From a virus: a stretch of 64,000 bases of DNA. The first letter of the stretch is position 1. Every line of letters begins with the position of its first letter. This document shows, piece by piece, positions 791 to 23,535 of this stretch. The notes below the pieces were generated by a model. It saw only the letters and a list, made by a program, of their open reading frames with translations, was not told the DNA's origin and did not search any database. Location: positions 64,001-128,000 of IMG/VR virus record IMGVR_UViG_3300005573_000058. The stretch is one strand, 5' to 3'. A program made the position numbers and the translations under genes.

Positions 791-1104
791 GTTCTTTTAT
801 AGTCATTCTTACACATCGTAGATAGTATAGCATATAACTGTTCTAAACAATGATATATTTTAAAATATAGATCAAGTAACGATTGTTACTTGATCATATA
901 ACTGTTCTAAGTAGTGAATGTTATTGTTCTAATAACTGCTGTTATCTGTTTTTTAACTGTATAAGATAGATGAAATAGATGTATAAGAATGATGATAAAG
1001 ATGTAATAAACAAGATATAGGCTGCGAAAGTAAATATAAGAATGATAGTAGAACATATAGAAATATATAAAACAGATATAGAAAGCATAAAAATGAATAT
1101 AACA

Positions 1105-2808: not shown

Positions 2809-5396
2809 ACAATAATAAAAATAACAAAATAAATAATAATATGAATACAAATATGAATAACAGAGTGATAATAGCATATACAGACGGATCTTGGACATCT
2901 AACAATCCAAATGTTGCTGGATTTGGTATCGTGATTACAGATATAAATAGAAATGTTGTCTATACAGAGACTGGTGAATTGACAGGTAATATTGTGAAGA
3001 TGAGACAAGTAGCAGGAGAGATGAAAGCTGCTATGAAAGCTGTATATTATGCAATAAACAACAGATATAATGAAATTGTTATCAGATATGACTATGAAGG
3101 CGTCGAAAAATGGGCCACTGGAGCATGGAAAGCAAAGAATGAATGGACTAAGAAATATGCAGAATGGATGAATAACGCGATGAAGAGAATAAGGATCAGA
3201 TTTGAGAAGATTAATGCAGCAGATAATATAGCAGACATGATAGCAAGAGAATCTACTGGAGCAAAGGATGCACATAACAGTGAAAGCAGATTAAAAGGAA
3301 TGTTCAATATGACAATGAAAAAAGATAATAATATGAATAATAACAAAAATAACGATACAGAAAAAGTAAGTCCTATGATTAGAGCAGTAGCGACAGAGGT
3401 AAATAAGATGCTCAATAATGACAACAGAATTAAGAAGATTAACAATGAGTATTGCACAATCGATCTGATTGTTGTAGCAAAGAGAGAAAATTCAGACATC
3501 GTGTCTGTAGCAGCTGAAGCAAGACAAGGCGTGATCAGTATAGAGAATGCAGAGATATATTATAAGAATATGATTAAATTTAAAGGATTCATTCCAACAG
3601 AAGCTGAAATTAAAGCGATAATTGGTGATAGAGAATTCATTTATGTAACTTCCAGTGGTCAAGGTCAGACAGATCCAATTATTATGATAGTTGCAAATGA
3701 TAGAATTAGAGAGGACAGAGAGCTTCTCAAGCTTGTAACGAATAATAAGAAGAAACTGCAAAGAATCAAGCTGCTCATCAGATCTCGTAAGTTCATGTTT
3801 GGTAATATAGGTATTACAGACGTTAAGTTCCTCGAAGATCCTGCTGACAACGATTATAGAACAGATGGTGTTATTTATCTAAATACAGATTTCGTAAGAG
3901 ACTTCAATAAGAAGAACGGTATAGATCTTGTTGGTGCAGAAGTGAAAGGTCTTGTGAAAGGTACTATAATGATGAGAGCAGATATACCATATAATGCTAT
4001 TGGTGTCCCAGTCGAAAATGCTCTCAAGTTCGACACAAGGGATAAGAATCTCATTCTTACACGTTCTGGTATAGCAGAATTTGCTGATTTCAGAATGACT
4101 CATACAAGAGGTCTGCCAATAGAACTTATACATCTTGTGAACAAGAAACTTACAAAGGATGAAAAGATTACAACTGCAGATCTTAAGATCAAGATACATG
4201 ATTCTAAACTCTTACACTATGTGTGGAAGATACCAGAGCTCAGAACAAAGATGATAGTTGAAAAGATCATGGATGAATTCAAAGCTGCTATTGTGAAAGC
4301 ATTCAAGACAGATATAAGGAAAGCTGGTGCTGTAATTGAACCTAAACTTGATCTTGACTATGACGAAGTAGTTGTACCACGCAAGATAGCAGAATGGATG
4401 AATATTAAAGTTGGTGACAAGGTTGCTCTATTCAGATCTCCAATTCCAACTCTGTTCAATCTTGCACAACTTAAAGTTGTAGCAACTACAGAACATAATG
4501 TGATCATGCTCAATCCAGATGTTGTGAAGTTTATACTTCTTGGTGATTATGATGGTGATACTGCCTTTATTATAACAGAACCAAGAATTGTTAAAGTTGC
4601 AACACCACCATCTACAATTATAGATGAAGCAAAGAGACTTGTAACTGAGTATGCAGAGAAAGTAGAAGAAAGGGCAGCTAATGTTGGTGATCTTGATGAG
4701 TATGAAATATGGAATCTGTCTTATAAGAACGCACAGCAGATTGGTAGAGCAACTTATAATCATTGGAGCTATATTGAGAAACATTATACATTCAGAGAAC
4801 AGATGAAGAGCTGGCTCTATAGAGTTCAGATGATCATAGATGCAACTAAATATGGAATCAATATTGGAGAAGTACAGAGCGATCTCGAAAATGAAATATA
4901 TGAAAATATGCTTGTTTCTGGTAAGTTTAGTGCAGAAAGTACCATAGAACTAGTAAATAAGAAGATTAATAGAACAGAAATATTTGGTATCCAAATGACA
5001 GAAGCATTTAAACTTGCATTTAAGAAGATGATTGAATATATGAATAAAGATGTTGATACAGCTGATATGAATAGAATTAGAAAGTTTACTAACGATGCAA
5101 TAGAACTGATTAAGAAACAAGGAAAGACAAAGATCTTAGATGAATATCTACTTACACTTTATAGAGATAAGAAATTTAATACTATAAAAACTATGATAGA
5201 AACAGATACTGAAAATAAGATCGATAGATTTATACTTGCTATTGCTGCACTCAGAGTATGGAACTATCCATGGAATGTTGGTATAGCAGAATTTGTGAAT
5301 CCAGATCTTATTGAAAAGCTTTATAATATAGAACATGCTAATTTCGAAGATGAAGAGCCAGAAATAGGAATAGATATTGATCAGGAGGAGATATGA
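2805..5396 (+). CDS. RNase HI domain fused to a single-subunit two-barrel (YonO/cellular RdRP-like) RNA polymerase
   Basis: N-terminal YTDGSW, RQVAGEM, YDYEG, NIAD (RNase H); then TDGVIY, KGLVKG, LFRSP, LGDYDGD, IDATKYG (two-barrel polymerase motifs). Confidence 0.8.
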   Translation: MNNNKNNKINNNMNTNMNNRVIIAYTDGSWTSNNPNVAGFGIVITDINRNVVYTETGELTGNIVKMRQVAGEMKAAMKAVYYAINNRYNEIVIRYDYEGVEKWATGAWKAKNEWTKKYAEWMNNAMKRIRIRFEKINAADNIADMIARESTGAKDAHNSESRLKGMFNMTMKKDNNMNNNKNNDTEKVSPMIRAVATEVNKMLNNDNRIKKINNEYCTIDLIVVAKRENSDIVSVAAEARQGVISIENAEIYYKNMIKFKGFIPTEAEIKAIIGDREFIYVTSSGQGQTDPIIMIVANDRIREDRELLKLVTNNKKKLQRIKLLIRSRKFMFGNIGITDVKFLEDPADNDYRTDGVIYLNTDFVRDFNKKNGIDLVGAEVKGLVKGTIMMRADIPYNAIGVPVENALKFDTRDKNLILTRSGIAEFADFRMTHTRGLPIELIHLVNKKLTKDEKITTADLKIKIHDSKLLHYVWKIPELRTKMIVEKIMDEFKAAIVKAFKTDIRKAGAVIEPKLDLDYDEVVVPRKIAEWMNIKVGDKVALFRSPIPTLFNLAQLKVVATTEHNVIMLNPDVVKFILLGDYDGDTAFIITEPRIVKVATPPSTIIDEAKRLVTEYAEKVEERAANVGDLDEYEIWNLSYKNAQQIGRATYNHWSYIEKHYTFREQMKSWLYRVQMIIDATKYGINIGEVQSDLENEIYENMLVSGKFSAESTIELVNKKINRTEIFGIQMTEAFKLAFKKMIEYMNKDVDTADMNRIRKFTNDAIELIKKQGKTKILDEYLLTLYRDKKFNTIKTMIETDTENKIDRFILAIAALRVWNYPWNVGIAEFVNPDLIEKLYNIEHANFEDEEPEIGIDIDQEEI

Positions 5397-5722: not shown

Positions 5723-6420
5723 ACAATAATATTAATATAACTATGAAGAATCTTATGAAACAGATCCATGAATATATGAAGCAGATTCATGAACATAATA
5801 GCAGAATAAGTCATGAACAGAAGTTACAGAGAGAGATAAAAGATAATAGAAAGTTGATAATCAGATGGCTACAAGCATATGAAGTTGTTGATAAGACATA
5901 CGATGAAATATTTGAATATGAATTCAGTACAGCAGATAAGATAGAGAAAGCAGCAGAGGTAGTGATAAATAAGAAACATATGGATCATGTAAAAGTCGGA
6001 TTATTGTTCAATCATAAAGCTGTAAGAAGAACATTCAAAGGAGATGTATTTTCAATGTCAGGAGAACAGTTGAAAGATCTATTGAACAGATATGTGAGAG
6101 CGATGAAAGATGAAAACAATAGTGAGGATAGTTTAACAGAACAGTTCTTTAAGATGCATCATCTGAATGTACATACTGTTGAACAGATAGATGACAACAG
6201 ATTATATAAAACACAGAAAGCAGGTGGAGTTGTTCGTGAGTGCTGGGTCAGAGGTAGAATAATAGGTATAGTACTTAGAGATAGAATAAATCATATTTAC
6301 AACGAAAAAGAAGGACAGTTAATTATAGATGTATTAAGAACAGCGTTAGAATATGCGAAAAAGAACAATATACCAGTTTACATAATAGATGATAGGCAGC
6401 AGAGAGTATATATGGCATAA
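5719..6420 (+). CDS. Hypothetical protein
   Basis: 233-aa ORF, GTG start after GGAGG, translationally coupled. Confidence 0.75.
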   Translation: MNNNINITMKNLMKQIHEYMKQIHEHNSRISHEQKLQREIKDNRKLIIRWLQAYEVVDKTYDEIFEYEFSTADKIEKAAEVVINKKHMDHVKVGLLFNHKAVRRTFKGDVFSMSGEQLKDLLNRYVRAMKDENNSEDSLTEQFFKMHHLNVHTVEQIDDNRLYKTQKAGGVVRECWVRGRIIGIVLRDRINHIYNEKEGQLIIDVLRTALEYAKKNNIPVYIIDDRQQRVYMA

Positions 6421-6430
6421 CAATTTAAAA

Positions 6431-6820
6431 AAGCATCAGATATACATACTAGACGCATGCACTGTCGTGCACTGTAAGTGCATATGCATGTGTTACCTTT
6501 CTTAAGGTAACATGTGCATGGTGCATGTTGTTAGTATCTATATCTGATGCTTGGGTGTTGGCCTCACCCTTAAAAAAGGCCCGTTAGTTCAGGTGAGGTT
6601 CCGGACGAGAACATAGGAACCCCGGGGGCAGTAGCCCTGACATCGACAGCGGGCACTAATGTGCACCACGCTGTCGATTTTTTTCTTCCTGGCAGTCCTT
6701 AAGCTGCAGGAGGACATAAGTCCAGGAAGAGAAAATGGTAACTGCAGCAAAAAACAAGAGCGATGGCATGGTGCCATCGCTCTAAACTTTGCTGCCTTTT
6801 ATGGCGGCAGAAGGAGGAGG
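6431..6820 (+). ncRNA. Candidate structured RNA or long 5' leader
   Basis: ~120-nt hairpin at 6431-6552, GC-rich multibranch element at 6553-6645, hairpins at 6642-6678 and 6681-6735; GC far above background. Confidence 0.45.
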
Positions 6821-6821
6821 T

Positions 6822-7199
6822 ATGTCTTTGTTGAAATTTGATGTCAAAAAAGTTATTATCACAAAAAATGAGATAAAAGTTGAAAAAAATGTTGTTGAAG
6901 CGATTAAAAAAGTTGCGGATATATCTTATAAGATGTATCCGCTTAAGAAAATTGTATGGATAAAGATTGACGATTTATGCGTTATAAGTCAAAATCCTAA
7001 AGGTAGAAGTATATATGCTAAGTTAGTAAGTAAAAACATAATAGGAATATATAGAGTAGGATGGATTGTTAAAGATAAAAAGGGTAAAAGAGAGTGGGTA
7101 GCAAAATATTTTTTGCGACCTAATCGAGAAAAAAATATATTTGAACTGGAAATCTACAAGCCAGGTTCGAAGATACCTGGCTTAGATGACAGGAAGTAA
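6822..7199 (+). CDS. Hypothetical cassette protein, paralog of 12565-12996
   Basis: Shared SQNPKG.S.YA.LVS.N.IG.YR.GW and AKYFLR.NR...DDRK. Confidence 0.85.
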   Translation: MSLLKFDVKKVIITKNEIKVEKNVVEAIKKVADISYKMYPLKKIVWIKIDDLCVISQNPKGRSIYAKLVSKNIIGIYRVGWIVKDKKGKREWVAKYFLRPNREKNIFELEIYKPGSKIPGLDDRK

Positions 7200-7420
7200 A
7201 ATAAATATGGTGGGTGGATAGGTTTGTTATTCTATCCCCCCCACCATATTCCCTCCAGGGAGAGTAGCGATTATGTATTGTTGCTACTCTCACTATGGGG
7301 AAGGAATAAACACACAGGCAACTGAAAATATGGTTGCCTGTGTTAATGGTTTTTAAAAAATTTGATAGGAACAGTGAGGTTCTATTCCTTCTGTTCCTAT
7401 CATAAAAATAAGGAGGTATT

Positions 7421-7756
7421 ATGTTAATTGTGTGTAACAGTTTTAGCACAAATATGTTAAATTCTTTTAATGATGAATCAGTTATCAGTTTCCGAAAAAT
7501 TTCCTTGCAAGAAGCAAGGAAATTCGTAGAAGACGCTGAGAGCGTCTCATCAGCTGTCGGCCATGCGCCGACTGCAGAAGTATTCTCTAAGTTGTTGGGA
7601 ATTAGAATAGAAACGAACAGGACCGAGATAAAACTCGGTCCTGAAACTGTCTTACTAATAGGTAGCCTCGGAACGAGGCTACCTGAAGGAAGAATCCTGT
7701 CCAAGGAAGAGCTTGAAGCTCTTCCAATTATTTGGTGGGTCGCCTCATTGGTTTAG
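7421..7756 (+). CDS. acrIII-1: DUF1874 (STIV B116-like) protein, AcrIII-1-type cyclic oligoadenylate ring nuclease
   Basis: Motifs NSFSTNML, SAVGHAPTA (catalytic GH), NRTEIKL and RLPEGRILS..EL. Confidence 0.8.
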   Translation: MLIVCNSFSTNMLNSFNDESVISFRKISLQEARKFVEDAESVSSAVGHAPTAEVFSKLLGIRIETNRTEIKLGPETVLLIGSLGTRLPEGRILSKEELEALPIIWWVASLV

Positions 7757-7768
7757 GCAACCCACCAA

Positions 7769-7798
7769 AGAGAAGCCCCTTTCAGGGCTTCTCTTTTT
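7769..7798 (+). terminator. Rho-independent terminator
   Basis: AGAGAAGCCC/GGGCTTCTCT stem followed by a T run; similar ones at about 8157, 8903, 9530, 10982, 11354, 13002 and 13690. Confidence 0.75.
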
Positions 7799-7991
7799 GC
7801 CCCCCGCCATAGAGTTCCACAGTAGCCTGCGGGGGGCTTGTTCATACTACAGATGTAACATATGTAACAGTTGTATGAACAGAAGATTTCATTACTGTTC
7901 ATACAACTGTTGTATCTGCTTAAAACGGTTTTTAAAAAATAGAAATAGCAGGTTCTACTCCTGCTACTTCTATTATAAAAAAGGAGGTTGT
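7799..7991 (+). repeat. Cassette leader module, copy 1 (GC hairpin, long hairpin, GGTTTTTAAAAAA, leader hairpin type Y, SD)
   Basis: One of eight full copies. Confidence 0.9.
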
Positions 7992-8171
7992 ATGAAAAAA
8001 GAAGGAAAAATAGTAGTTAGGTTTGGAAGGTCTGATCCTGATGGAATAAGCTACTACTGTTTTCAAGAAGATAAAACTTATTACTCAGGATACTTTGATA
8101 TCATAGAAATAGAATTAAGTATAGAAGAGTGGAAAAAACTGAAAAGTCAATTAAAAACCCACAGCTGCTAA
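7992..8171 (+). CDS. Small hypothetical cassette protein (59 aa)
   Basis: AAGGAGG before ATG 7992; stop lies inside a terminator hairpin. Confidence 0.75.
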   Translation: MKKEGKIVVRFGRSDPDGISYYCFQEDKTYYSGYFDIIEIELSIEEWKKLKSQLKTHSC

Positions 8172-8191
8172 ACTGTGGGTTTTTTCTTTTT

Positions 8192-8383
8192 GCCCCCCGC
8201 CCTAGCCAATCCAAAGTAGCTGGCGGGGGGCTTGTTCATATTAAAGATGTAACAGAAGTATGAACAGAAGTTTTATTACTGTTCATACAACTGTTGCATC
8301 AATAGAGGTTTTTAAAAAAAGAGCAATGACAATGGTGTCATTGCTCTAAACAGCTGCCTTACGGCAGCAAAAAGGAGGTTTTT
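8192..8383 (+). repeat. Cassette leader module, copy 2 (leader hairpin type X)
   Basis: Same architecture as copy 1. Confidence 0.9.
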
Positions 8384-8920
8384 ATGATAAAAGAAGTTCA
8401 TGTAAACATATATGAAGTAATCATAAGAAAACTGGATACACCTTCTGACATATCTAAAGATGAAGCTATGATATACTTACAACTTGCGAAAGATAACGAT
8501 AATTATTACAGAAACGCAAAAAGAATTTATGAAAAGTTCAAAGATGATCCTGAGATAAGAAAAGAACTGCTCGAAAATGGTTTTACAGATCCTAAATTCT
8601 TATGGTCGTTAAGCGAAGACGAAATTAAAAATGCAAGAAAAGATTACAGATTTGCATTGGAAATAGTGTATAATATGACAGCGAAGGAAATCAGAGATGT
8701 TATACAAAGATGGAAGAAGGAAGAGGAAGAAATAGAAAGAAAGAGGAAAGAAGAAGAAAAAGAAGAAGCAAAAAGAATTGCTGAAGAGCTAGAAATTACA
8801 AAAGAAGATATAATAAGCAAGCCAGTAGAAGTAATCAAAAGGATAAGAATTATGAAAAATGCATATTTAAAAGAAGCAAAAGAAGTATTTGATAAAATAA
8901 AGAAAGTCCTCCTTGAGTGA
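8384..8920 (+). CDS. Hypothetical charged, helical cassette protein
   Basis: ORF with SD and terminator. Confidence 0.8.
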   Translation: MIKEVHVNIYEVIIRKLDTPSDISKDEAMIYLQLAKDNDNYYRNAKRIYEKFKDDPEIRKELLENGFTDPKFLWSLSEDEIKNARKDYRFALEIVYNMTAKEIRDVIQRWKKEEEEIERKRKEEEKEEAKRIAEELEITKEDIISKPVEVIKRIRIMKNAYLKEAKEVFDKIKKVLLE

Positions 8921-8948
8921 GGACTTTCTTTTTTTGTTACAGTAATCA

Positions 8949-9144
8949 GCCCGCCGCCACAGAATTTCAAAGCAGCCTGCGGCGGGCTTGTTTTTAAAGA
9001 TGCAACAGATGTATAGACAGAAGATTTTAATATAGTTCATACATCTGTTGCATCTGCTTAAAACGGTTTTTTAAAAAACAAGAGCGATGGCATGGTGCCA
9101 TCGCTCTAAACCTTGCCATCATATTGATGGCAAAAGGAGGTAAT
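8949..9144 (+). repeat. Cassette leader module, copy 3 (type X)
   Basis: GCCCGCCGC/GCGGCGGGC compensatory variant of the GC hairpin. Confidence 0.9.
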
Positions 9145-9546
9145 ATGAAGAAGTATGATGCTATTTGTTTGTTAAAGAAAATTGGAACAACCAAAGAAAA
9201 CTTTGAACAAATGCCAAAAGAAGAAATAGTAGAAAAAATTTATAAGGAACTGAATACATATAGTTTACAAACTGCGAATGATTTATATAAAGAGATAAAG
9301 GAATCTGTTCACAAAGAAGTTGATATAAAAGAAGCTTTAACTGATTTCTCAAATAAAGTTGAAGCTGCTGATAAAAATGCTTACGATATAGAGTTTATTT
9401 ACGACATGTTGGATGCTGTTATAGAATTGCTACAAGACTTAGGATATGAAATTGACAAAGATATATCCAAAAGATTATGGAGAACGTTAGGTGAAATGAA
9501 GATCATTTGTGAAAAATATGAAAGTAAAAAGAACGCTCTCAACTGA
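9145..9546 (+). CDS. Hypothetical cassette protein
   Basis: SD at 9134-9140; terminator overlaps the stop. Confidence 0.8.
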   Translation: MKKYDAICLLKKIGTTKENFEQMPKEEIVEKIYKELNTYSLQTANDLYKEIKESVHKEVDIKEALTDFSNKVEAADKNAYDIEFIYDMLDAVIELLQDLGYEIDKDISKRLWRTLGEMKIICEKYESKKNALN

Positions 9547-9573
9547 GAGCGTTCTTTTTTGTTACAGTAATCC

Positions 9574-9763
9574 GCCCGCCGCCCCAGCTTATCCAAAGCA
9601 GCCTGCGGCGGGCTGTTCATATTACAGATGCAACAGATGTATGAATAGAAGATTTTAATACAGTTCATACATCTGTTGTATCAACAGAGGTTTTTAAAAA
9701 AATCGGTAGGAACAGTAAGGTTCTATTCCTTCTGTTCCTATCTGTAAATAAAAGGAGGTATTT
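9574..9763 (+). repeat. Cassette leader module, copy 4 (type Y)
   Basis: Same architecture. Confidence 0.9.
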
Positions 9764-10510
9764 ATGAACCTAAAAGAATTTTATTTTAAAGAAGGAAATA
9801 AAGTAACAGTAAGCAGAGAAGTACTAAATGATTATGATAAATACAATGTTAGTTACAACGGAAAAACATGGACATTTGATATAGGTGAGGATGTGAATGG
9901 TCTAGAAGAAATACTAAATAAGACAGATCTTGCAGAAGACGAAAAACTTGCTCTACAACTGTCCATAGAAAAAACATCACTGTTAAGAGAGATGTTTCCA
10001 GATATAAAAATGATAAAAGAGATGATAAAAGAGACAAAAGAAAACGAAAGTAGAAAAGAGAGAGTAAGATCAAGAGTAACAGTTGTAGAAGAAAAAGTAT
10101 ACGAAGAAATAAAAGATCTAAGAGAAGAGAAGAAAGAAAGGTTAGAGCAGATGAAAGAAGAAGCGGAAGAAAAATACAATGAAATAAGGAAAGAAATGAA
10201 AGAAGATGAAATGATAAAAGAAGAACATGAATGCTCATTTGGCAATATAATTATCACAAAGAATATCAAAAGAGAGATAAGTCCAGTTGACTACGCAGAA
10301 GAAATTTCAGTGCTCAAAGAGCATGAAATATACATCAGAGATCCTGAAAAAGGACCGCTACTCCAAAGGATAACTGATGTATCTGACACGTACGCTTACT
10401 ACTACTTCGATATAAAGACAGAAACGAAAACGACTATAAATATAGAATTTAAAGCTGATATACCTGATCACATAATTAATGATATTAAAAAATACTTAAA
10501 AATAAAATAG
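9764..10510 (+). CDS. Hypothetical cassette protein with a central coiled coil
   Basis: 248-aa ORF with SD. Confidence 0.8.
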   Translation: MNLKEFYFKEGNKVTVSREVLNDYDKYNVSYNGKTWTFDIGEDVNGLEEILNKTDLAEDEKLALQLSIEKTSLLREMFPDIKMIKEMIKETKENESRKERVRSRVTVVEEKVYEEIKDLREEKKERLEQMKEEAEEKYNEIRKEMKEDEMIKEEHECSFGNIIITKNIKREISPVDYAEEISVLKEHEIYIRDPEKGPLLQRITDVSDTYAYYYFDIKTETKTTINIEFKADIPDHIINDIKKYLKIK

Positions 10511-10581
10511 GTTTTAAAAAAAATGATAGGAGCAAACAGGTTCTACTCCTGTTGCTCCTATCAAAAAATAAAGGAGGTTGT

Positions 10582-10983
10582 ATGGACGAGAAGATTTATA
10601 ATACGTACTTTTGGTGGAAGGGGTATATACTTGCCCCTTCAATGGTGAGGGAATTAAAGAGTTTCCTTCCCAGTATTCAAGAATACTGGGAAGCTCTGAA
10701 AAGGAACTCCAGATACATTCTAACTGATTTACAAAGAGATGGATTAGATAGAAGAAAGGAGGTAGTGGAGAAAATTTACAGGAGAGCTGTAAAGAAATGG
10801 ATAAATCTCTTTACAGATCCGAATCTTGATATGACTTCAGACGAGGATTTTATAATCTTCTTAAAGATGCTAGTTGACTGTCTGAAACCATACAGCAAAT
10901 ATGTTGGCGAGCGAAAAGATCGCCAATACATTAAAAAGATCTTGACGAAGATAATAGAAGAATACTACGAAGAAAATAAATAA
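10582..10983 (+). CDS. Hypothetical cassette protein, preceded by a truncated module (10510-10581)
   Basis: GGTTTTAAAAAA, type Y hairpin and SD upstream. Confidence 0.8.
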   Translation: MDEKIYNTYFWWKGYILAPSMVRELKSFLPSIQEYWEALKRNSRYILTDLQRDGLDRRKEVVEKIYRRAVKKWINLFTDPNLDMTSDEDFIIFLKMLVDCLKPYSKYVGERKDRQYIKKILTKIIEEYYEENK

Positions 10984-11010
10984 GAAGCCCCTTTCGGGGC
11001 TTCTTATTCC

Positions 11011-11196
11011 GCCCCCCGCCACAGCCTACTCACAGTAGCCGGCGGGGGGCTGTTCATATTACAGATGTAACAGAAGTATGAACAGAAGTACCATCATTGT
11101 TCATACTCCTGTTGCATCAATAAAAGGTCTTCAAAAAAGATAAGAACAAGAAAGGTTCCACTCCTTCTGTTCTTATCTGTAAAATAGGAGGCATAT
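11011..11196 (+). repeat. Cassette leader module, copy 5 (type Y)
   Basis: Same architecture. Confidence 0.9.
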
Positions 11197-11352
11197 ATGA
11201 AAAATAAAGACTAAAAAAGAAAAGAAAAACTTGAAAGAATAAAAGAACTAAGAAGATACAATGGCAAAATACCTGCTGAGAAGATTTTCATAAAAAGAAG
11301 TACCAAGCATGACAATGACTGGAAATATGAAACATATGAAACTGATGAATAA
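11197..11352 (+). pseudogene. Cassette gene with in-frame TAA at codon 6; paralog of the C-terminal part of 19616-19831
   Basis: Reads MKNKD*KRKEKLERIKELRRYNGKIPAEKIFIKRSTKHDNDWKY; compare KIKRIKSMSRSRIPSVKIMHRSKRHENDWKY. Confidence 0.65.
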
Positions 11353-11387
11353 AAAGAAACCTTTATGGTTTCTTTTTTACTGCAGCA

Positions 11388-11590
11388 GCCCCCCGCCTCA
11401 GCCTACTCACAGTAGCCGGCGGGGGGCTTGTTCTTATTACAGATGTAACAGGTGTATAGACAGAAGATCTTATATCATCTGTTTATACACCTGTTATATC
11501 TGTTGATGGGTTTTTAAAAAATAATAAAGAGCAGTTGCATGGTGCAACTGCTCTAAACTGCAGCTATATGCTGCAAGAAAGGAGGATGTT
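11388..11590 (+). repeat. Cassette leader module, copy 6 (type X)
   Basis: Same architecture. Confidence 0.9.
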
Positions 11591-12055
11591 ATGATAGTAT
11601 TCATAGGAAAAAGCTACAAATTAGATAACGGAGACTTACTGATATCATCGTATGGCAAGTATGAGCCAGACATGCTGATACTAGTTCCAAAAAACCATGT
11701 GCAAATTTCAAAGATAGTCGACGAAGAAAGATACTACGTTGACATAGAAGTAAAAGAAAACGAAAATATAAAATTTAGTGCGAACTGTGTAAAGATCGTC
11801 CCAGGAACATTTGGAAAGACGAAAAAAGGAGCTGATATTTTTAAGATTGATATAAATGGTCCTCATCTACTTATAGAAGTCCAATGGGGCGGAAGCTTCA
11901 GGACGACCGATGGCAGGTTAGAATCTCCCATAGACGAAACGAAGATAATAAAGAAGATCAGGAAAAGTTCGCATGGAGGTGGATTAGGAAATACGTATTA
12001 TATATTCGACAGGAAGTACTATGAGAGTTATACACCAAATATAGATGATTTTTGA
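11591..12055 (+). CDS. Hypothetical cassette protein (beta-rich, SSHGGGLG motif)
   Basis: ORF with SD. Confidence 0.8.
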   Translation: MIVFIGKSYKLDNGDLLISSYGKYEPDMLILVPKNHVQISKIVDEERYYVDIEVKENENIKFSANCVKIVPGTFGKTKKGADIFKIDINGPHLLIEVQWGGSFRTTDGRLESPIDETKIIKKIRKSSHGGGLGNTYYIFDRKYYESYTPNIDDF

Positions 12056-12062
12056 TATATCC

Positions 12063-12210
12063 ACCCCGCCGCATCAGCCATTCATAGTAGCAGGCGGCGG
12101 GGTTTGCTCTTTAAAAGTGCAACAGATGTATATATAGAAGATCTTATATCTGTTTATACATCTGTTGCATTTGTTGATCGGTTTTTTAAAAAATAAAAAA
12201 GGAGGTATAT
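12063..12210 (+). repeat. Cassette leader module, copy 7 (no leader hairpin)
   Basis: GC hairpin, long hairpin, GGTTTTTTAAAAAA and SD. Confidence 0.85.
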
Positions 12211-12384
12211 ATGAAACATGTTACAAAAGTTGTATTGTTTGTAGCTTTTGGTGCAATTGTTGTAGCCTTGTTCTGCAGCAAATGGTTATTGAAAGGCCTT
12301 GTATGGACTAACAGAAAGTTAAATCAATTGATAAATAAAAACAAGGCCTACACCAAAAGTTATAAAAATAATAATCAGCCTTAG
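12211..12384 (+). CDS. Small membrane protein (57 aa, below the ORF track cutoff)
   Basis: MKHVTKVVLFVAFGAIVVALFCSKWLL..., strong SD. Confidence 0.7.
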   Translation: MKHVTKVVLFVAFGAIVVALFCSKWLLKGLVWTNRKLNQLINKNKAYTKSYKNNNQP

Positions 12385-12391
12385 CAACAAC

Positions 12392-12564
12392 GCCCGCCGC
12401 CATAGAGTTTCACAGTAGCAGGCGGCGGGCTGTTACTGAGCATTAAAAAGGCTGATTGCTACAGTTATGTAGCTGTTTGTGTATCGGTTTTTAAAAAATA
12501 AAGAGCAGTAACATGGTGTTACTGCTCTAAACCTGCAGCTATATGCTGCAAAAAAGGAGGTTGT
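12392..12564 (+). repeat. Cassette leader module, copy 8 (type X, divergent middle hairpin)
   Basis: GC hairpin and downstream elements conserved. Confidence 0.85.
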
Positions 12565-12996
12565 ATGAATTTTAATTTTAATTTTAACAAGTTATTTAAG
12601 AAATTTACTGGATCGAAAGCTACAAGAATAAAATTCGATCCAGAGAAAGTTGTTGTTTCTGTAAATGAAGTTAATGCAGATAAGAAGACTGTTGCTACAA
12701 TAATAGAGGTAGCAACTGAAACGTACAAGCAATTTCCAGCAAAGGATGTTGTAACAAAGAAAACCGGTGATCTATATATATCCAGCCAGAATCCAAAAGG
12801 AAAAAGCTCATATGCTGATCTTGTTAGCAGAAATGTAATAGGTGCATATAGATTAGGATGGATATATGCGAAAGATGGTAAAAATATAATCTGGAAGGCA
12901 AAGTACTTCCTTCGCGCAAATCGGAAGGAAGGTAATTTCCAACTCGAGATCTATCAACCGAATTCTATGATAAAAGGTATCGACGACAGGAAGTGA
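12565..12996 (+). CDS. Hypothetical cassette protein, paralog of 6822-7199
   Basis: Clear full-length similarity. Confidence 0.85.
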   Translation: MNFNFNFNKLFKKFTGSKATRIKFDPEKVVVSVNEVNADKKTVATIIEVATETYKQFPAKDVVTKKTGDLYISSQNPKGKSSYADLVSRNVIGAYRLGWIYAKDGKNIIWKAKYFLRANRKEGNFQLEIYQPNSMIKGIDDRK

Positions 12997-13213
12997 GCAT
13001 AAGAGCCCCACAGTAGTGGGGCTCTCTTTTTTTAGAACAGAAGAATAAAAGAACAGAAAAACAGAAATAGAACAGAAGTGAAACCCCACAAAAGCAGTTA
13101 AAATTGAACATTTTTCAACTTCTTTCACCACTCATCCCCACTTAACTGCTCTATTTTTAACTTTTTCTACTGCTTTTGTGGGGTTTCAAAAAATCAAAAA
13201 ATTAAAAAATTAT

Positions 13214-13288
13214 GGCCTCGTCGTCTAAATGGTTTAGGACTCCAGCTTTTCAAGCTGGAAATGGTGGGTTCAAGTCCCCCCGAGGCTA
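13214..13288 (+). tRNA. tRNA-Glu (anticodon TTC), CCA not encoded
   Basis: Acceptor GGCCTCG/CGAGGCT; anticodon arm CCAGC-TTTTCAA-GCTGG; T loop GGTTCAAGTCC. Confidence 0.9.
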
Positions 13289-13310
13289 TAATAAAAGAAA
13301 AGGAGGTAAT

Positions 13311-13502
13311 ATGTTAATAGAAAAAAAGAAGTTTTTTATATATTTGACAAAAAATCAAATAGGAGCCGGCACAAACAACGGCTCCATAAGCATGCACTGG
13401 TATAGAAAATGGATAGGAATAAGAACATATAAAGGCATAGATACAGAGGAAATAAATTTAGGTTATATATGGATAGTTATAGCAAAAATAAAGGAGGAAT
13501 AG
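13311..13502 (+). CDS. Small hypothetical protein
   Basis: AGGAGG before ATG 13311. Confidence 0.7.
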   Translation: MLIEKKKFFIYLTKNQIGAGTNNGSISMHWYRKWIGIRTYKGIDTEEINLGYIWIVIAKIKEE

Positions 13503-14150: not shown

Positions 14151-14251
14151 TAAAAAAGAGGCTGTCCAGTGTATTGGACAGCCTCTTACTGCTCATACAA
14201 CTGATATAAAAGAGATATATGAACTATGATGTTACTCTATTAATTGTTTTC

Positions 14252-14320
14252 TTATATATATACTACTACTATATATATATTATTATTAATATATATATAT
14301 AGTAGTAGTAATAGGTATAA
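14252..14320. promoter_or_regulatory. AT-rich inverted repeat (DUE-like)
   Basis: TACTACTACTATATATATAT...ATATATATATAGTAGTAGTA next to the DnaA boxes. Confidence 0.65.
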
Positions 14321-14355
14321 AATTTTTATAAGCTGTTGAAAATCAATCATCGTTA

Positions 14356-14457
14356 TGTGGAAAAAATGTGGAAAAGATGTGGATAAAATGTGGATAAAAA
14401 TTTTTATCAACAGGTTTTCCACAGGTTTTCCACATAGTTATCCACAGGTTTTCCACA
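14356..14457. promoter_or_regulatory. Cluster of nine DnaA boxes (oriC-like)
   Basis: TGTGGA(A/T)AA at 14356, 14367, 14378, 14389; TT(A/T)TC(A/C)ACA at 14404, 14415, 14426, 14438, 14449; 11-12-bp period. Confidence 0.85.
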
Positions 14458-14552
14458 TAAGTTGTATGAACAGACAGAAGTATAATTTTACTGATTACTA
14501 TCTGATATAAAAGGCGGGGCGTCGTAAGACGACGTCACCGCCGCCATAAAAA

Positions 14553-14630
14553 AACAGTTAATAGAACAATGTCGCTGTAGTAACAGTTGTTAGAACGACA
14601 CTGCTATAGTAACAGTTGTTAGAGCAAACA
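14553..14630. repeat. Three ~29-bp tandem repeats (AACAGTTRWTAGARC core)
   Basis: Core is the reverse complement of the 16032-16227 repeat core. Confidence 0.7.
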
Positions 14631-14975
14631 TAGAATAAAATAAAGTAACAGTTACTGCTACAGCTATAGCAGTATTAAGCAACTGCCACTGTTACAGTTA
14701 TAATTTTATTAGCGTCTTGTGACATTTTATTAGAAATGTCAAAAAAATAAGAACAGTTGTTATAGCAACAAATGATATGGTAATATCAAGATCTAATCTA
14801 TCAGCAATTGCTGATAGATTAACATAGAACCAATCAAAAAGTACTCAGAAAGGGGAAGACGTGTAAAACTGCTTACTTCTGTAAGAATAAAAGTTAAGTT
14901 TAGACATAATAAACATGTTAGATATCAGTTACTTGCAACAAGTTATTAAACTGATACTTCAACGTCAATTGATTT

Positions 14976-15074
14976 CAATTGCAACTGCCACTGTTCATAT
15001 AACTGCTACAATTGCAACTGCCATTGTTCATATATCTGCTACAATTGCAACTGCCATTGTTCACCTATCTGCTA
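14976..15074. repeat. Three 33-bp tandem repeats, CAATTGCAACTGCCAYTGTTCATATAWCTGCTA
   Basis: Directly visible. Confidence 0.9.
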
Positions 15075-15660
15075 CAAGTGAATATAAGATATAGAATATC
15101 TAGATATCTGTCTATCCGCTCGATAGCGGATAGACAGCTGAAGAACGACTATAGGCGTTTTGCTCACTTCAAGTGAGATAATAATGTAAGTTTAGATATA
15201 AGAATATATAGCTATAGAATAGCAAATAGAGCAAATTGCTACTGCCAAGAGTAAAGTAGCAATTTGCGCAGTTATGAAAAAAACTGCGAAAATAAAGTTA
15301 AGTTAAGTTATATATATATTAAGATGTCATCAGCAACAAGAACATTGCAATGCTAAATAATATAAATAAATAAAATAAAAGTCATAATGATGTAATTAAT
15401 GTAATAATGTAACTGTTATTGCTACAGTAACTGTCATAAAGAATAGTAAAACAAAAGAAAAAAAATAATAATAAATGCTACTGCCGTAGTATCTGTTATA
15501 AAGAGCAACTGTTATGCTGTAATATCTATTATAAAAGGCGACTGCCACTGTAGTAATATCTGCTATAAAAGGCGACTGCCACTGCTGTAATATCTGCTAT
15601 AAAAGGCAGGCGTCATACTGCTGTAAAACATAATAAATATTGTCAGTAGGAGGTAAAAAT

Positions 15661-15876
15661 ATGATATTATATCAGCTGTTTGTTAATTTGAACTTGTATT
15701 CTATCTGTAGTAAATGTGTATTTACTGGGTGTGCATTATATGAAAACAACTGTTTTAGGAATAAATCAAAGTTAAATAACGTTAGTATACGTTTATATCA
15801 GGAATATTATAACATTGTACGTGTAAAAACGATGGATGAATATATAGCAGTAGATGGTACATCGCAACTTATTTGA
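15661..15876 (+). CDS. Small Cys-rich protein (paralog family)
   Basis: SD AGGAGG; CSKC motif. Confidence 0.7.
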   Translation: MILYQLFVNLNLYSICSKCVFTGCALYENNCFRNKSKLNNVSIRLYQEYYNIVRVKTMDEYIAVDGTSQLI

Positions 15877-16031
15877 TATTTTAGCTGTAACTATGATAAA
15901 AGATAGCAAATGTCCGTTGTAACAGTAGTAAGAGCGGCTTGTGGCAGTTGTAAGAGCAGCTTATAGCTACTGTATGTAGCTGTAACTATTATAAAAGCAG
16001 TTTACAACAGCAGCACGAGCAGCCAGTTGTT

Positions 16032-16227
16032 GCTCATATAACTGCTACAAGGAGAAATTGTTCTAATAACTGTTACAAAGAGATATTGTTCATATAACTG
16101 TTACAAAGAGATACTGTTCTTATAACTGCTGTATAGATACATTGCTCTTATAATTGCTACAAAGAGATATTGCTCTAATAACTGCTACAAAGAAATACTG
16201 TTCATATAACTGCTGTATAGATATCGT
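16032..16227. repeat. Seven 28-bp tandem repeats (G(C/T)TCWWATAACTG(C/T)T... consensus)
   Basis: Units start at 16032, 16060, 16088, 16116, 16144, 16172 and 16200. Confidence 0.9.
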
Positions 16228-16282
16228 TTTATGATTTTTGTTCAAACTGTCAAAAAAAATTGATATAAAAGGCAGGTGTAAT

Positions 16283-23523: not shown

Positions 23524-23535
23524 GCAAAAGTTACA

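Follow-up and report, generated by a model that had tools for sequence, protein, structure and literature searches.

A repeated multi-hairpin module separates the small-gene cassettes of an uncultured hot-spring phage

In an uncultured phage whose DNA comes from hot-spring metagenomes, positions 6749–13032 of the window (the whole 64,000-nucleotide stretch analysed, part of a record of 138,661 bp that is 80% complete) hold 11 single-gene cassettes, separated by eight full copies, one diverged full copy and two partial copies of one module. With a probability of about 0.55, we interpret these modules as composite cassettes combining a terminator, a non-sigma70 promoter and a structured leader. 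The 5′ part would end and insulate the upstream transcript, by an intrinsic terminator where present and by a very stable GC hairpin (H1), and the middle and 3′ parts would start and equip the next transcript. The modules are thus most likely transcription-unit boundaries.

Architecture and confinement of the array

The module, 150–230 bases long and directly repeated about ten times, consists of an optional terminator, H1 with its 20–22-nt loop, a TGTTCATATTAC-type spacer, a second hairpin of 20–29 bp (H2), the A/T tract GGTTTTTAAAAAA, one of two kinds of leader hairpin (type A or type B) and, last, a strong ribosome-binding site. An earlier reading of the DNA, made from the sequence alone (the sequence-only reading), had given this order, which we found in the sequence, and had counted eight full and three partial copies. 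A repeat search upheld this count: it recovered the 40-nt GC hairpin eight times (at 7799, 8192/8193, 8949, 9574/9575, 11011/11012, 11388/11389, 12063/12064 and 12392), as well as the long-hairpin family and the leader families, and the partial copies are real. The features are as follows; bit scores refer to a covariance model of the module (R1).

6749..6821, +, partial module before cassette 1: A-run, type-B leader and ribosome-binding site only; the leader comprises a 12-bp hairpin (6757-6783), CTCTAAAC and a second hairpin (6788-6814)
6822..7199, +, cassette 1 gene, 125 aa, paralog of cassette 11
7200..7420, +, diverged full module, weakly matched by the model (E 8.6e-4, 24 bits): order unchanged but all three hairpins unrelated (GC-rich, 7205-7250; CATATT; 22-bp with four G.U pairs, 7250-7307; a further one, 7310-7345), GGTTTTTAAAAAA 7348-7360, type-A leader 7363-7401
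7421..7756, +, cassette 2 gene, 111 aa, AcrIII-1/DUF1874 (PF08960, STIV B116-like) family
7757..7991, +, full module, 128.6 bits: terminator hairpin and T-run about 7768-7797, H1 7799-7838, H2 7846-7918, A/T tract 7927-7939, type-A leader 7940-7975
7992..8171, +, cassette 3 gene, 59 aa, orphan
8172..8383, +, full module, 138.9 bits: terminator 8153-8184 and T-run, H1 8192-8232, H2 8243-8300, A/T tract 8307-8319, type-B leader 8320-8372
8384..8920, +, cassette 4 gene, 178 aa, orphan, Lys/Glu-rich
8921..9144, +, full module, 130.6 bits: terminator 8899-8931 and T-run, H1 8949-8988, H2 8996-9056, A/T tract 9065-9078, type-B leader 9081-9137
9145..9546, +, cassette 5 gene, 133 aa, orphan
9547..9763, +, full module, 145.2 bits: terminator 9526-9559 and T-run, H1 9574-9614, H2 9624-9682, A/T tract 9689-9701, type-A leader 9703-9742
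9764..10510, +, cassette 6 gene, 248 aa, orphan
10511..10581, +, minimal junction: A/T tract 10510-10522, type-A leader 10523-10563 and ribosome-binding site, with no terminator, H1 or H2
10582..10983, +, cassette 7 gene, 133 aa, orphan
10984..11195, +, full module, 132 bits: weak terminator, H1 11011-11051, H2 11061-11119, degenerate A/T tract GGTCTTCAAAAAA 11126-11138, type-A leader 11139-11178
11196..11351, +, cassette 8, a 51-codon frame with one in-frame TAA at codon 6, probably a pseudogene
11352..11590, +, full module, 133.8 bits: terminator, H1 11388-11428, H2 11436-11504 (29 pairs), A/T tract 11509-11521, type-B leader 11528-11580
11591..12055, +, cassette 9 gene, 154 aa, orphan
12056..12210, +, full module without leader hairpin, 132.5 bits: H1 12063-12103 (end pair changed from G-C to A-T, insertion compensated), H2 12113-12175, A/T tract 12180-12193, ribosome-binding site 7 nt after the tract
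12211..12384, +, cassette 10 gene, 57 aa, hydrophobic N-terminus, basic overall, orphan
12385..12564, +, full module whose second hairpin differs, 71.7 bits: H1 12392-12431, short unrelated hairpin about 12450-12480, A/T tract 12486-12498, type-B leader 12502-12555
12565..12996, +, cassette 11 gene, 143 aa, paralog of cassette 1
13002..13032, +, intrinsic terminator that closes the array: 10-bp stem, ACAGTAG in the loop, T7 run after

The covariance model detected the eight full copies in the whole record, all on the + strand (71.7–145.2 bits), and nothing outside the array with E <0.05. When one module was compared with the whole record by BLAST, 13 of the 14 matches fell within 71345–76568 (record coordinates). 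The window contains 45 occurrences of GGTTTTTAAAAAA with at most two mismatches, against 10.8 expected (0/100 shuffles reach 45), and six of its seven exact matches lie inside the array. All copies share one orientation and are confined to one small-gene region, which adjoins a phage RNA polymerase gene.

Paired structure, covariation and strand

In H1 and H2 together, 94.1% of alignment cells are paired, against 33–48% with the partner slid; the covariation score is 0.196, compared with 0.140 when shuffled (0/500), and double changes occur in six pairs (6/500). The type-B leader hairpin is 100% paired, with double changes in 4/11 pairs, and the type-A leader 94.9% paired, with double changes in 8/16 pairs (0/500), the sample for all of these values being five to eight paralogous copies of common ancestry in one genome. 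The covariation asserted by the sequence-only reading therefore exceeds the shuffled and slid controls in all stems, and both stem variant pairs that it quoted are present. Intergenic regions of the array fold with a median z of −10.7 relative to shuffles, whereas 19 intergenic regions from elsewhere on this strand of the genome have a median of −2.1 (Mann-Whitney p 6e-5), and all module hairpins are still stable at 70 °C. The structure of the module stems is under selection.

The same reading took G.T mismatches as evidence for top-strand structure. This stands for H2, in which G.U pairs number 15/172 on the + strand against 2/155 on the − strand; its alignment has 17 G.U cells at eight pair positions, against three A.C or C.A cells, and the + fold is the more stable in 8/8 copies at 37 °C and in 6/8 at 70 °C. 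Because the G.U pairs are almost only on the + strand, we take H2 to act as sense-strand RNA. H1 (8/8 copies) and the first type-B hairpin (5/5), by contrast, are perfect Watson-Crick palindromes without wobble and carry no strand information. Compensation in palindromes could be mimicked by intrastrand template switching.

Wobble-free palindromes are what DNA hairpins need, and for H1 and the first type-B hairpin a DNA-level role fits as well as an RNA role. The palindromes might then be binding sites or extruded hairpins, an explanation that we consider rather improbable. They could be operators, 'stoperator'-like sites or iterons for a phage DNA-binding protein. Alternatively, as in phage N4, a polymerase could recognise a promoter hairpin, here either H1 or the type-B hairpin with its 12-bp stem and 3-nt loop. 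The phage encodes polymerases of its own, and the type-B hairpin has an invariant top, CATGGTG, with an invariant CTCTAAAC just after. Consistent with such a role, too, the spacer motif TG[CT]TC[AT]TA[AT][AT]AC occurs exactly 13 times, against 0.9 expected, and recurs in tandem repeats at 14992 and 16031–16199, near a DnaA-box cluster. However, the stem sequences vary freely while complementarity is kept, whereas protein-binding sites would keep their sequence, and in both H2 and the 7250–7307 hairpin only one of the strands tolerates G.T. A 20–22-nt loop also disfavours cruciform extrusion and takes H1 outside the geometry of N4 promoter hairpins, which have 5–7-bp stems and 3-nt loops. Searches of Pfam and of PDB sequences gave no support for reading a 2662-aa protein as a virion polymerase. 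A search for a T7-like polymerase gave no match, but its control likewise gave none.

Transcription signals in the module

By eye, six of the 11 cassettes end in a canonical terminator, a hairpin plus T-run, and one in a weak terminator, so that the statement that cassettes usually end in their own terminator is right in kind and slightly generous in 'usually'. The region contains 23 terminator-like sites, against 4.2 expected. Since the six canonical terminators and the weak one are placed directly 5′ of H1, the downstream gene needs a new start.

A scan of 6300–13400 returned 21 sigma70-type sites, against 22.4 expected, with none in the core from H1 to the A/T tract; three touch module flanks or leaders (10479-10508 on the + strand; 7427-7399 and 9542-9513/9515 on the − strand). 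The claim that no sigma70 promoter is present thus holds for the module core. Because no module element resembles a characterised promoter, any placement is a guess. Under the composite reading, a non-sigma70 promoter would lie somewhere in the stretch that runs from CA-N-AG-Y-AGC, the conserved 3′ half of the H1 loop, to the GGTTTTTAAAAAA tract; we prefer to place it at the H1-loop motif together with the TGTTCATATT spacer. H2 would in that case be a 5′-terminal mRNA structure that could stabilise the transcript or undergo RNase III-type processing, and would be followed by an A/U-rich single-stranded tract, the type A or B leader hairpin and the strong ribosome-binding site. An obligatory promoter in the spacer is made less likely by the spacer motif, which three copies (8949, 12063 and 12392) have only in degenerate form and the minimal junction lacks; the 7 nt between A/T tract and ribosome-binding site in copy 12063 argue against a start downstream of the tract. 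H1 itself is a poor intrinsic terminator because of its large loop and the lack of a proper U-run.

The phage encodes two paralogous two-barrel (QDE-1/YonO-like) RNA polymerases, which may transcribe the array; the gene for one lies 1.4 kb upstream of it (27.1 bits to PF05183, whose cut-off is 23.8). A sigma region-2 protein is also encoded, so that a host-core polymerase may be used instead. Read on the − strand, the leader hairpins, which are preceded by an A-run, are canonical terminators at seven sites; the composite-module model leaves these unexplained.

A core lacking a recognisable promoter would also suit a T7-style processing array, which we think unlikely. Here a terminator-insensitive phage polymerase would make one long transcript from a promoter in 6421–6821 or further upstream, the modules being promoter-free; RNase III would cut H2, with H1 and the terminator hairpin protecting the 3′ end and the leader hairpin the 5′ end. 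H2 would be a suitable substrate, as a near-perfect duplex of sense-strand bias flanked on both sides by stable hairpins, and cassette 1 must be expressed even though the module before it is without the T-run and the GG that belong to the A/T tract. To our knowledge, YonO has no flap. According to the YonO paper, the flap is needed for hairpin-dependent pausing and termination, and the Discussion proposes that domains conserved in multisubunit polymerases, including the flap, evolved for regulation (PMC5467207). What tells against a processing array is that six or seven of the 11 cassettes end in hairpin plus T-run terminators and that the 138.7-kb record contains no RNase III gene.

A distant relative and known analogues

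No close relative was found among the collections searched, and the one distant relative found is an IMG/VR contig of 31,267 bp (G001). Its polymerase shares 36% identity with a polymerase of this phage over 470 aa (E 2e-68), and 12 of its 41 called ORFs match this genome in conserved order. It has the same architecture: a two-barrel RNA polymerase gene precedes an array of small genes between which lie structured modules that are repeated, though unrelated in sequence to ours. Terminators in its small-gene region are followed by structured intergenic regions of 100–250 nt, with two families of repeated modules; one family has a GC hairpin with a 25–31-nt loop and an AT-rich palindrome directly 5′ of the ribosome-binding site. 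This layout marks operon boundaries, tightly packed genes being without such regions, which argues further against the processing array.

The sequence-only reading named PeSLs, T7 RNase III sites and N4 hairpins, which are apt as analogies, but membership fails for each. We know of no terminators between the genes of the T7 early region; T7-type RNase III sites lie in terminator-free polycistrons, unlike the terminated cassettes here. PeSLs require a sigma70 consensus promoter, which the module core lacks. The T4-type PeSL is a promoter, a polyG/polyC stem-loop terminator, sitting between or over the promoter boxes, and a ribosome-binding site, placed before ORFans, and PeSLs are recombination points (PMC2839356, PMC4122927). 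In Thermus phage P23-45, the gene for the non-virion polymerase belongs to a pre-early region of 9 kb, in which one conserved AT-rich motif precedes 14 start sites and a conserved motif of 26 nt is found at seven termination sites (PMC10770324). On inspection, the intergenic DNA of P23-45 showed repeated hairpin-plus-T and pre-ATG motifs. We regard the modules as analogous to T4-type PeSLs and to these pre-early motifs.

Mosaic copies and cassette genes

The module copies are mosaics, in which the nearest neighbour changes from segment to segment. Copies 11011 and 11388 are 98% identical in H1 and 72% in spacer plus H2, and carry leaders A and B, respectively; copies 8949 and 9574 are 82%, 88% and 87% identical in terminator, H1 and H2, but the first has a type-B and the second a type-A leader. 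The A/T tract is the point at which one leader type is exchanged for the other. On the composite reading, the directly repeated module would supply homology, and recombination would reassort module segments and, we infer, genes. The proposal of a shufflable array with the module as recombination handle is thus supported indirectly, by the mosaic copies, the leader exchange and the finding that only one of 18 small genes called in the distant relative, representing one gene family, is common to both arrays.

Mosaic copies would also fit mobile DNA, in which a dedicated recombinase or transposase moved the gene cassettes and the modules were their ends or recombination sites, comparable to the attC sites of integrons or to MITE-, REP- or IS200/IS605-derived elements. 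An array of one-gene cassettes with unrelated content fits this, as do structured imperfect palindromes conserved more in structure than in sequence. We nevertheless consider it very improbable. The 138.7-kb record (80% complete) has no tyrosine recombinase (PF00589) or Y1 transposase (PF01797), copies keep to one region and one orientation with none elsewhere in the record, and attC-type core sites were not seen by eye. The module also runs directly into the ribosome-binding site and is therefore an expression signal. Scans with the module pattern gave no match in public viral contigs and three in metagenome contigs, all without any other module motif; the H1-hairpin pattern alone gave 82 single matches in 185,579 species genomes, mostly in high-GC taxa, with no convincing copy.

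The small genes are mostly unrelated, as had been noted: in an all-pairs comparison within the array, cassettes 1 and 11, the first and last, share 51% identity (E 1e-42), and no other pair is related at E <0.1. The cassette 1 protein has no Pfam family and has distant homologs elsewhere. The genes may be early or anti-defence, but the description of the whole as an anti-defence array was not borne out, a family being assignable in only one of the 11 cassettes. That one is the anti-CRISPR of the sequence-only reading, the AcrIII-1-family gene of cassette 2, whose product scores 69.9 bits against the PF08960 profile (cut-off 26) and matches PDB 2j6b, 2x4i, 6scf and 2j85. It retains the catalytic His, which aligns with a position occupied by His in 2x4i and by Ala in 6scf.

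A repeated multi-hairpin module precedes the small genes

The region 6400-13400 holds 11 short genes on the + strand, each behind a strong AAGGAGG site, and a repeated module occupies the intervals between them. This module, noted in the sequence-only reading, was borne out by a repeat search, which recovered eight copies of a 40-nt GC hairpin together with long-hairpin and leader families; we name the copies by the position at which the GC hairpin starts. In order, the module consists of a terminator (in some copies), the GC hairpin (H1), a spacer, a long hairpin (H2), a short variable junction, an A/T tract (GGTTTTTAAAAAA), one leader and the ribosome-binding site. The genes had been said usually to end in their own terminators; this stands for six of the 11 cassettes, in which a canonical hairpin and T-run is present, and weakly for one more.

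H1 has a polyC/polyG stem of 9-10 bp (-20 to -29 kcal/mol) and a loop of 20-22 nt, the 3′ half of which reads CA-N-AG-Y-AGC; it has no U-run and is followed by a spacer of the TTGTTCATATTACAG type. A pseudoknot between loop and spacer was rejected, as its pairing, judged by eye, was inconsistent among the copies. H2 comprises 20-29 pairs in seven of the eight full copies and 11 pairs in copy 12392, and GGTTTTTAAAAAA or a near variant occurs at 10 of the 11 junctions. The leaders are of two types, each with five copies. Type A is a bulged 15-bp hairpin with a 7-nt loop lying within an invariant GGTTCYAYTCC, which resembles a tRNA T-loop; neither Rfam nor ARAGORN called this leader tRNA-like. 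Type B is a perfect 12-bp hairpin with a 3-4-nt loop and a CATGGTG top, followed by an invariant CTCTAAAC and then by a second hairpin that keeps its structure but not its sequence. Departures from the full order are as follows.

Copy 12063, + strand: no leader hairpin
Junction 10511-10581, + strand: A/T tract and type-A leader only
Junction 6749-6821, + strand: A-run and type-B leader only
Junction 7200-7420, + strand: diverged full copy, its three hairpins unrelated in sequence and arranged as in the module, with CATATT separating the first from the second

A covariance model (R1) scored the eight copies at 71.7-145.2 bits and the diverged junction 7200-7420 at 24 bits (E 8.6e-4), and found nothing below E 0.05 outside the array. 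When one module was compared with the whole record by BLAST, 13 of the 14 matches fell inside the array. The A/T tract matched 45 times in the window against 10.8 expected, a count reached in none of 100 shuffles. The spacer motif family TG[CT]TC[AT]TA[AT][AT]AC, which the module spacer has in common with tandem repeats downstream, gave 13 exact matches against 0.9 expected. By a test using crude gene calls and mononucleotide shuffles, the intergenic regions of the array had a median folding z of -10.7, compared with -2.1 for 19 other intergenic regions on the same strand (p 6e-5). In Rfam, tRNA alone reached the gathering score; at E up to 5 the remaining matches were all sub-threshold, mostly to microRNA precursors, small RNAs and leader elements.

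The hairpins covary, and H2 is strand-biased

The stems had been described as covarying, and the alignments agree. Across H1 and H2, 94.1% of the cells were paired, compared with 33-48% when the partners were slid; the covariation score lay above all 500 shuffles, and double changes occurred at six pairs. In all eight copies the H1 stem is perfect, although it has undergone three compensated changes: four copies have G-C in place of C-G at one pair, and copy 12063 has both a paired insertion and an A-T where the end pair is otherwise G-C. Every one of the 55 cells of the first type-B hairpin was paired, with double changes at four of 11 pairs, and the type-A hairpin was 94.9% paired, with double changes at eight of 16 pairs (0 of 500 shuffles). 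Because the comparison involves five to eight paralogous copies within one genome, the covariation events are few and shared by descent.

G.T mismatches on the + strand had been taken as a sign that top-strand structure is under selection. This held for H2; H1 and the first type-B hairpin are perfectly symmetric and give no strand information. When folded as the + strand, H2 contained 15 G.U among 172 pairs, compared with two among 155 on the - strand, and its alignment showed 17 G.U cells at eight pair positions against three A.C or C.A cells. The + strand fold was the more stable in eight of eight copies at 37 °C and in six of eight at 70 °C. The diverged long hairpin at 7250-7307 likewise had four G.U pairs on the + strand and one on the - strand. 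This bias indicates that at least H2 is selected as sense RNA or as sense single-stranded DNA. Folding calculations found every module hairpin stable at 70 °C.

Module copies are mosaics

We compared the copies segment by segment and found that nearest neighbours differed for the terminator, H1, the spacer plus H2, and the leader. Copies 11011 and 11388 are 98% identical in H1 and 72% in the spacer plus H2, and carry leaders A and B, respectively; copies 8949 and 9574 are 82-88% identical in terminator, H1 and H2, and carry leaders B and A, respectively. Copy 7799 is closest to 12392 in H1, to 8192 in H2 and to 11011 in its leader. Such a mosaic is what recombination or gene conversion among the copies would be expected to produce, with the A/T tract as the obvious candidate for the exchange point between the module halves. 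No close relative for a comparison of gene order was found in DNA, pattern or protein searches of the collections.

We conclude that the module is a regulatory cassette present in repeated copies, which probably also provide homology for recombination; the earlier interpretation, an expression signal doubling as a recombination handle, was right in kind and wrong in details. Repeated regulatory cassettes that double as recombination handles are known in T4-like phages. The present case would extend this idea to an unrelated phage, whose cassette consists mostly of RNA structure.

The architecture recurs in a distant relative

A second phage contig in IMG/VR (G001, also L209; 31,267 bp, 15% complete) was found only by means of an alignment of six sequences of the protein family encoded by cassettes 1 and 11; a search with a polymerase alignment returned the same contig again. 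Its 745-aa ORF is 36% identical over 470 aa (E 2e-68) to the two-barrel RNA polymerase encoded beside the array. The G001 polymerase is without an RNase H domain, and RNase H is instead a separate 135-aa gene downstream (L209:4055-4462). Twelve of the 41 called ORFs match this genome, with the same order and the same strand switch. Downstream of the G001 polymerase lie 18 called small ORFs, one of which matches an array gene (it is a homolog of cassettes 1 and 11) and another the RNase H domain.

Tightly packed G001 genes have no spacer. Operon boundaries, by comparison, carry a terminator of hairpin and T-run, 100-250 nt of strongly folded sequence and a ribosome-binding site. Two pairs of these structured regions are repeats of each other. 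In one pair, a GC hairpin with a C/A-rich loop of 25-31 nt has a stem that differs between the copies yet stays complementary, and an AT-rich palindrome stands directly before the ribosome-binding site; a pattern control for this GC hairpin gave 0 matches. A second member of the lineage, deeply diverged from this one, thus shows the same architecture built from unrelated sequences. In both phages, a small-gene array behind a polymerase gene combines terminators, GC hairpins with a large loop, additional hairpins, an A/T palindrome and ribosome-binding sites. No other observation argues as strongly for functional structures and against a recent repeat expansion.

Within the small-gene region of G001, a tRNA-like sequence with a GGTTCGATTCC T-arm was seen by eye at L209:7737-7836.

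The phage belongs to a lineage without cultured members

The source record is a linear IMG/VR virus of 138,661 bp, estimated to be 80% complete, of which the window covers bases 64001-128000. The stretch is carried almost word for word by two DNA runs from hot-spring metagenomes, and no RNA run was among the carriers listed. Their contigs are broken at repeats, and short-sided joints of 20-25 letters were not trusted. GC content is 24-38%, and beyond position 3300 all ORFs of at least 150 aa lie on the + strand. The DNA polymerase B of the phage had best matches of 28-29% identity among 5.8 billion protein clusters and, among GenBank phages, a best match of 23% to cyanophage gp43. By sequence, this is an orphan lineage, unrelated to T4.

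Searches for the module elsewhere gave a consistent picture. The region 6400-13400 had no blastn match in 50,697 phage records. Two specific module patterns matched no stretch each in viral contigs and three stretches in metagenome contigs, all of them lacking every other module motif. Among 185,579 species genomes the H1 pattern turned up 82 times, always as a single copy and mainly in taxa of high GC content; we read these matches as chance. The pattern ATGGTG-N6-CTCTAAAC was too unspecific, with at least 120 stretches in viral contigs; one stretch with two matches (L066) proved to be a tail-fibre repeat and not a module.

Among proteins, cassette 11 and the RNA polymerase matched only themselves in a word-indexed search, and the polymerase, paralog-alignment and P0007 queries had no match in viral contigs. 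A tblastn search of phage records with the polymerase matched 326 other records, only through the RNase H domain; P23-45 was not among the organism groups named for these matches. We also observed that cassette 11 is carried by three further contigs.

The array encodes an AcrIII-1-family protein and orphans

The anti-CRISPR gene reported for the array is indeed present. Cassette 2 (7421-7756) scored 69.9 bits against PF08960 (cut-off 26) and E 2e-27 against phrog_5063, and it matches the solved AcrIII-1-family proteins 2j6b, 2x4i, 6scf and 2j85. Its GH aligns with the GH of 2x4i and with the GA of 6scf, a His-to-Ala variant. Cassette 2 thus keeps the catalytic histidine of AcrIII-1 (His47 in SIRV1 gp29), and the ring-nuclease activity of the family, degradation of cyclic tetra-adenylate and with it inhibition of type III CRISPR, is predicted.

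The genes at the two ends of the array, cassettes 1 and 11, are paralogs with 51% identity. A full HMMER search of 1.84 billion representatives found eight proteins of this family at E up to 0.001, one of them cassette 1 itself and the rest distant; their alignment has the common core Q-x-P-x-G-[KR]-S-x-Y-A. No relatedness was detected among other cassette pairs, and nothing in Pfam or PHROGs exceeded threshold for cassettes other than 2, leaving 10 of the 11 genes without a family. The ESM Atlas gave no usable match for cassettes 11 and 9 (best feature score 0.78, TM <0.5). Cassette 8 (11196-11351) spans 51 codons in a frame that one TAA interrupts at codon 6; in one run, the depth of the Logan contig over it is 4.4, compared with about 10-14, which might reflect polymorphism.

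The putative character of an anti-defence array therefore comes from one of 11 genes. The compact accessory region combines a gene of the AcrIII-1 family with an orphan family present twice and eight other orphans, and counter-defence or takeover genes of this deep, uncultured hot-spring lineage may concentrate in it.

Transcription signals and polymerases

The following features of the window bear on how the array may be transcribed and on what lies beside it.

2805-5396: N-terminal RNase H fused to a two-barrel polymerase region (PF05183, QDE-1/YonO type)
21436-23523, 695 aa: second polymerase paralog, no Pfam match
27480-27944: RNase H-like paralog
51862-52953: protein with sigma70 region 2 (58.9 bits, cut-off 24)
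13213-13289: tRNA-Glu (anticodon TTC), directly after the array
14250-16260: repeat-rich, mostly non-coding region, about 0.7 kb past the array, with the tRNA and two small genes in between

The polymerase ORF at 2805-5396 ends about 1.4 kb before cassette 1. The protein of 21436-23523 shares 25% identity with it over 456 aa (E 3e-25) and 29% with the G001 polymerase, and GDYDGD occurs in both proteins of this genome. In the 51862-52953 protein, sigma70 region 4 was not detected; since a sigma region-2 protein is encoded, the host core polymerase may serve at least part of the phage transcription. A search for T7-like polymerase (PF00940) gave no match, but its control likewise matched nowhere. 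No phage RNase III gene and no Y1 transposase gene was found in the 138.7-kb record.

An obvious sigma70 -35/-10 promoter had been reported missing, and the counts support this: 6300-13400 contains 21 sigma70-type sites against 22.4 expected, none of them in the core from H1 to the A/T tract, while three touch module flanks or leaders. Terminator-like sites, numbering 23 against 4.2 expected, include the + strand terminators at gene ends. Seven leader hairpins also read as - strand terminators, the T-run being the complement of the A-run, a look for which this model has no good explanation. Whether H1 acts as a terminator is uncertain because of its 20-22-nt loop and absent U-run.

Read most simply, each module marks a boundary between transcription units. 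Since terminators stand before most modules, a new start is needed downstream. The terminators, the lack of a sigma70 promoter in the core, the phage's own polymerases and sigma protein, and the probable presence of H2 in RNA together favour a promoter at the H1 loop and spacer. Such a promoter would comprise the spacer of the CATATT type and the loop's conserved 3′ half. The stem of H1 would at the same time terminate or insulate, much as in those PeSL classes in which stem-loop and promoter box overlap, and H2 would become the 5′-terminal hairpin of the message.

Other promoter candidates were rejected. Against the A/T tract as an archaeal TATA box were the DnaA boxes, the intrinsic terminators and a helicase-primase of the DnaB/DnaG type; the motif of a Bacteroidetes-type promoter was not seen by eye.

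Comparison with known systems

The module belongs to none of the PeSLs, T7 RNase III sites, N4 promoters or integron attC sites. PeSLs are known from T4-type phages (Arbiol et al. 2010, PMC2839356; Comeau et al. 2014, PMC4122927). Like them, the module is a short, repeated intergenic cassette before small ORFan genes in plastic regions, has a polyG/polyC-type stem-loop, contains G-T pairs in its stems and ends in a ribosome-binding site (AAGGAGG) and start codon. In PeSLs the stem-loop acts as a terminator or attenuator next to or over a promoter, and the cassettes are points of homologous exchange; the module may resemble them in both respects. In PMC2839356 a consensus sigma70 -35/-10 promoter is part of the PeSL definition, and some classes have their stem-loop over a promoter box. 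For PeSLs, mini-circles and exchange among close relatives have been shown. Unlike PeSLs, with their sigma70 promoter and one stem-loop, the module has a core without a sigma70-type promoter, extends over 150-230 nt and contains three to four hairpins and two interchangeable leader types.

The Thermus phage P23-45 is likewise thermophilic, with two-barrel RNA polymerases of its own and a block of small, function-unassigned genes adjoining a polymerase gene (the non-virion one in P23-45). According to Chaban et al. (2024, PMC10770324), many of its small pre-early genes have their own copies of one promoter and one terminator motif, the start and end sites of which were mapped experimentally. 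We read these motifs from the P23-45 DNA: the intergenic stretches are 30-77 nt long, with a single hairpin and T-run and the motif directly before the ATG. Many genes here, too, have a terminator and their own AT-rich conserved motif, which in P23-45 is a promoter. An alternative reading places the promoter of our phage in the A/T tract; it explains some features of the module and fails on others. A virion RNA polymerase fused to a tail protein, as in P23-45, gained no support here from Pfam and PDB sequence searches with a 2662-aa protein of the phage. The modules differ from the P23-45 signals in being several times longer and multi-hairpin and in giving mRNAs with a ribosome-binding site, and the motifs of the two phages have no sequence similarity.

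The RNase III sites of the T7 early region are sense-strand RNA hairpins with internal loops, located between small genes. That region is transcribed by the host polymerase as one terminator-free polycistron, and cleavage leaves a 3′ hairpin on the upstream message. H2 resembles these sites in providing about 20 bp or more of sense-strand double-stranded RNA between genes in seven of the eight full copies, and it could be that the module contains no promoter and RNase III cuts H2. Such processing, again, covers some of the features and not others. Most genes here end in terminators, unlike the T7 early genes, and H2 is a nearly perfect duplex. Of the three readings we moderately favour the promoter at the H1 loop and spacer.

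Promoters of the N4 virion RNA polymerase, three per genome, consist of a 5-7-bp stem and a 3-nt loop and are recognized on the template strand. The module resembles them in having a small GC-containing hairpin with conserved loop bases, which in N4 is used by a phage polymerase for early genes. It is unlike them in its dimensions (H1, 9-10-bp stem and 20-22-nt loop; type-B hairpin, 12 bp and 3-4-nt loop), and the two polymerase paralogs here are two-barrel enzymes and not T7-like ones. A bolder proposal, which we consider unlikely (roughly 15%), is that the module is a structure-dependent start signal, the first promoter architecture for the small two-barrel (QDE-1/YonO-like) polymerases of phages, with an N4-like logic that evolved independently in a polymerase family unrelated to that of N4. 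H1 or the 12-bp, 3-nt-loop type-B hairpin would then be read by one of the two paralogous polymerases, and the long hairpin would form the 5′ end of each message. If true, the signal would be conserved as architecture, not as sequence, across a deep, uncultured lineage of thermophilic phages. To our knowledge, promoters of YonO/QDE-like single-chain phage RNA polymerases have not been reported. The YonO paper (PMC5467207) leaves the YonO promoter undetermined. The array provides about ten natural variants of one candidate signal, complete with compensatory mutations and located beside a polymerase gene, and so is a ready set of templates, from a lineage without a cultured member, on which transcription and processing could be assayed in vitro at high temperature.

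In mycobacteriophages, SAS/ESAS (Cluster K) and stoperators (Cluster A) are sequence-conserved motifs of 13-17 bp, the stoperators being repressor sites. They share with the module repetition across a block of phage genes, a tie to gene starts or stops and orientation with transcription; unlike in these motifs, mostly structure is conserved here, with covariation. Integron attC arrays differ in that no adjacent tyrosine recombinase (IntI) is present: PF00589 had 0 matches in the 138.7-kb record (80% complete), whereas the control matched in 14 of 14 genomes.

Structured and repeat-rich regions near the array

The mostly non-coding, repeat-rich region downstream of the array and tRNA amounts to 2.5 kb, and its part at 14250-16260 looks like a replication origin. 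An AT-rich stretch (14250-14320) opens this part and leads to nine DnaA-box-like sites at 14356-14457 with 11-nt spacing, three of them exact (TTATCCACA) and six with one mismatch, four on the - and five on the + strand. Beyond them come tandem arrays with periods of 29, 33, 34 and 28 nt; the 28-nt repeat has a TGTTCATATAAC-type motif in common with the module spacer.

Upstream, the first cassette is preceded by a highly structured 401-nt leader region (6421-6748; z -12.5). An imperfect palindrome of ~120 nt (6432-6552), dense in GTGCA/TGCAC repeats, lies in it together with other hairpins and a terminator (hairpin and T7 run) near 6653-6700. The intergenic region 23524-23856, directly after the second polymerase paralog, is also exceptionally structured (z -12.3), with internal repeats of its own: two copies of CAATGGAAATTGA and two of a CAGAAGTGAA..CTTCTG hairpin with its A-run.

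Two further regions, window 700-1430 and genome 61.8-62.45 kb (window -2200 to -1560), are non-coding and dense in short repeats. Near the strand-switch point, one of them contains 32-nt units and an 11-nt unit, AGCAGTATAAG; the other contains AACTGTT at 12-13-nt spacing; the repeat motifs resemble the H2 arms and the module spacer.

Elsewhere in the record, a 2662-aa protein (L207:117-8105, - strand; genome 18416-26404) had no sequence match in Pfam or the PDB. An anaerobic ribonucleotide reductase NrdD (42338-46837; 513 bits) carries an intein and LAGLIDADG homing-endonuclease domains.
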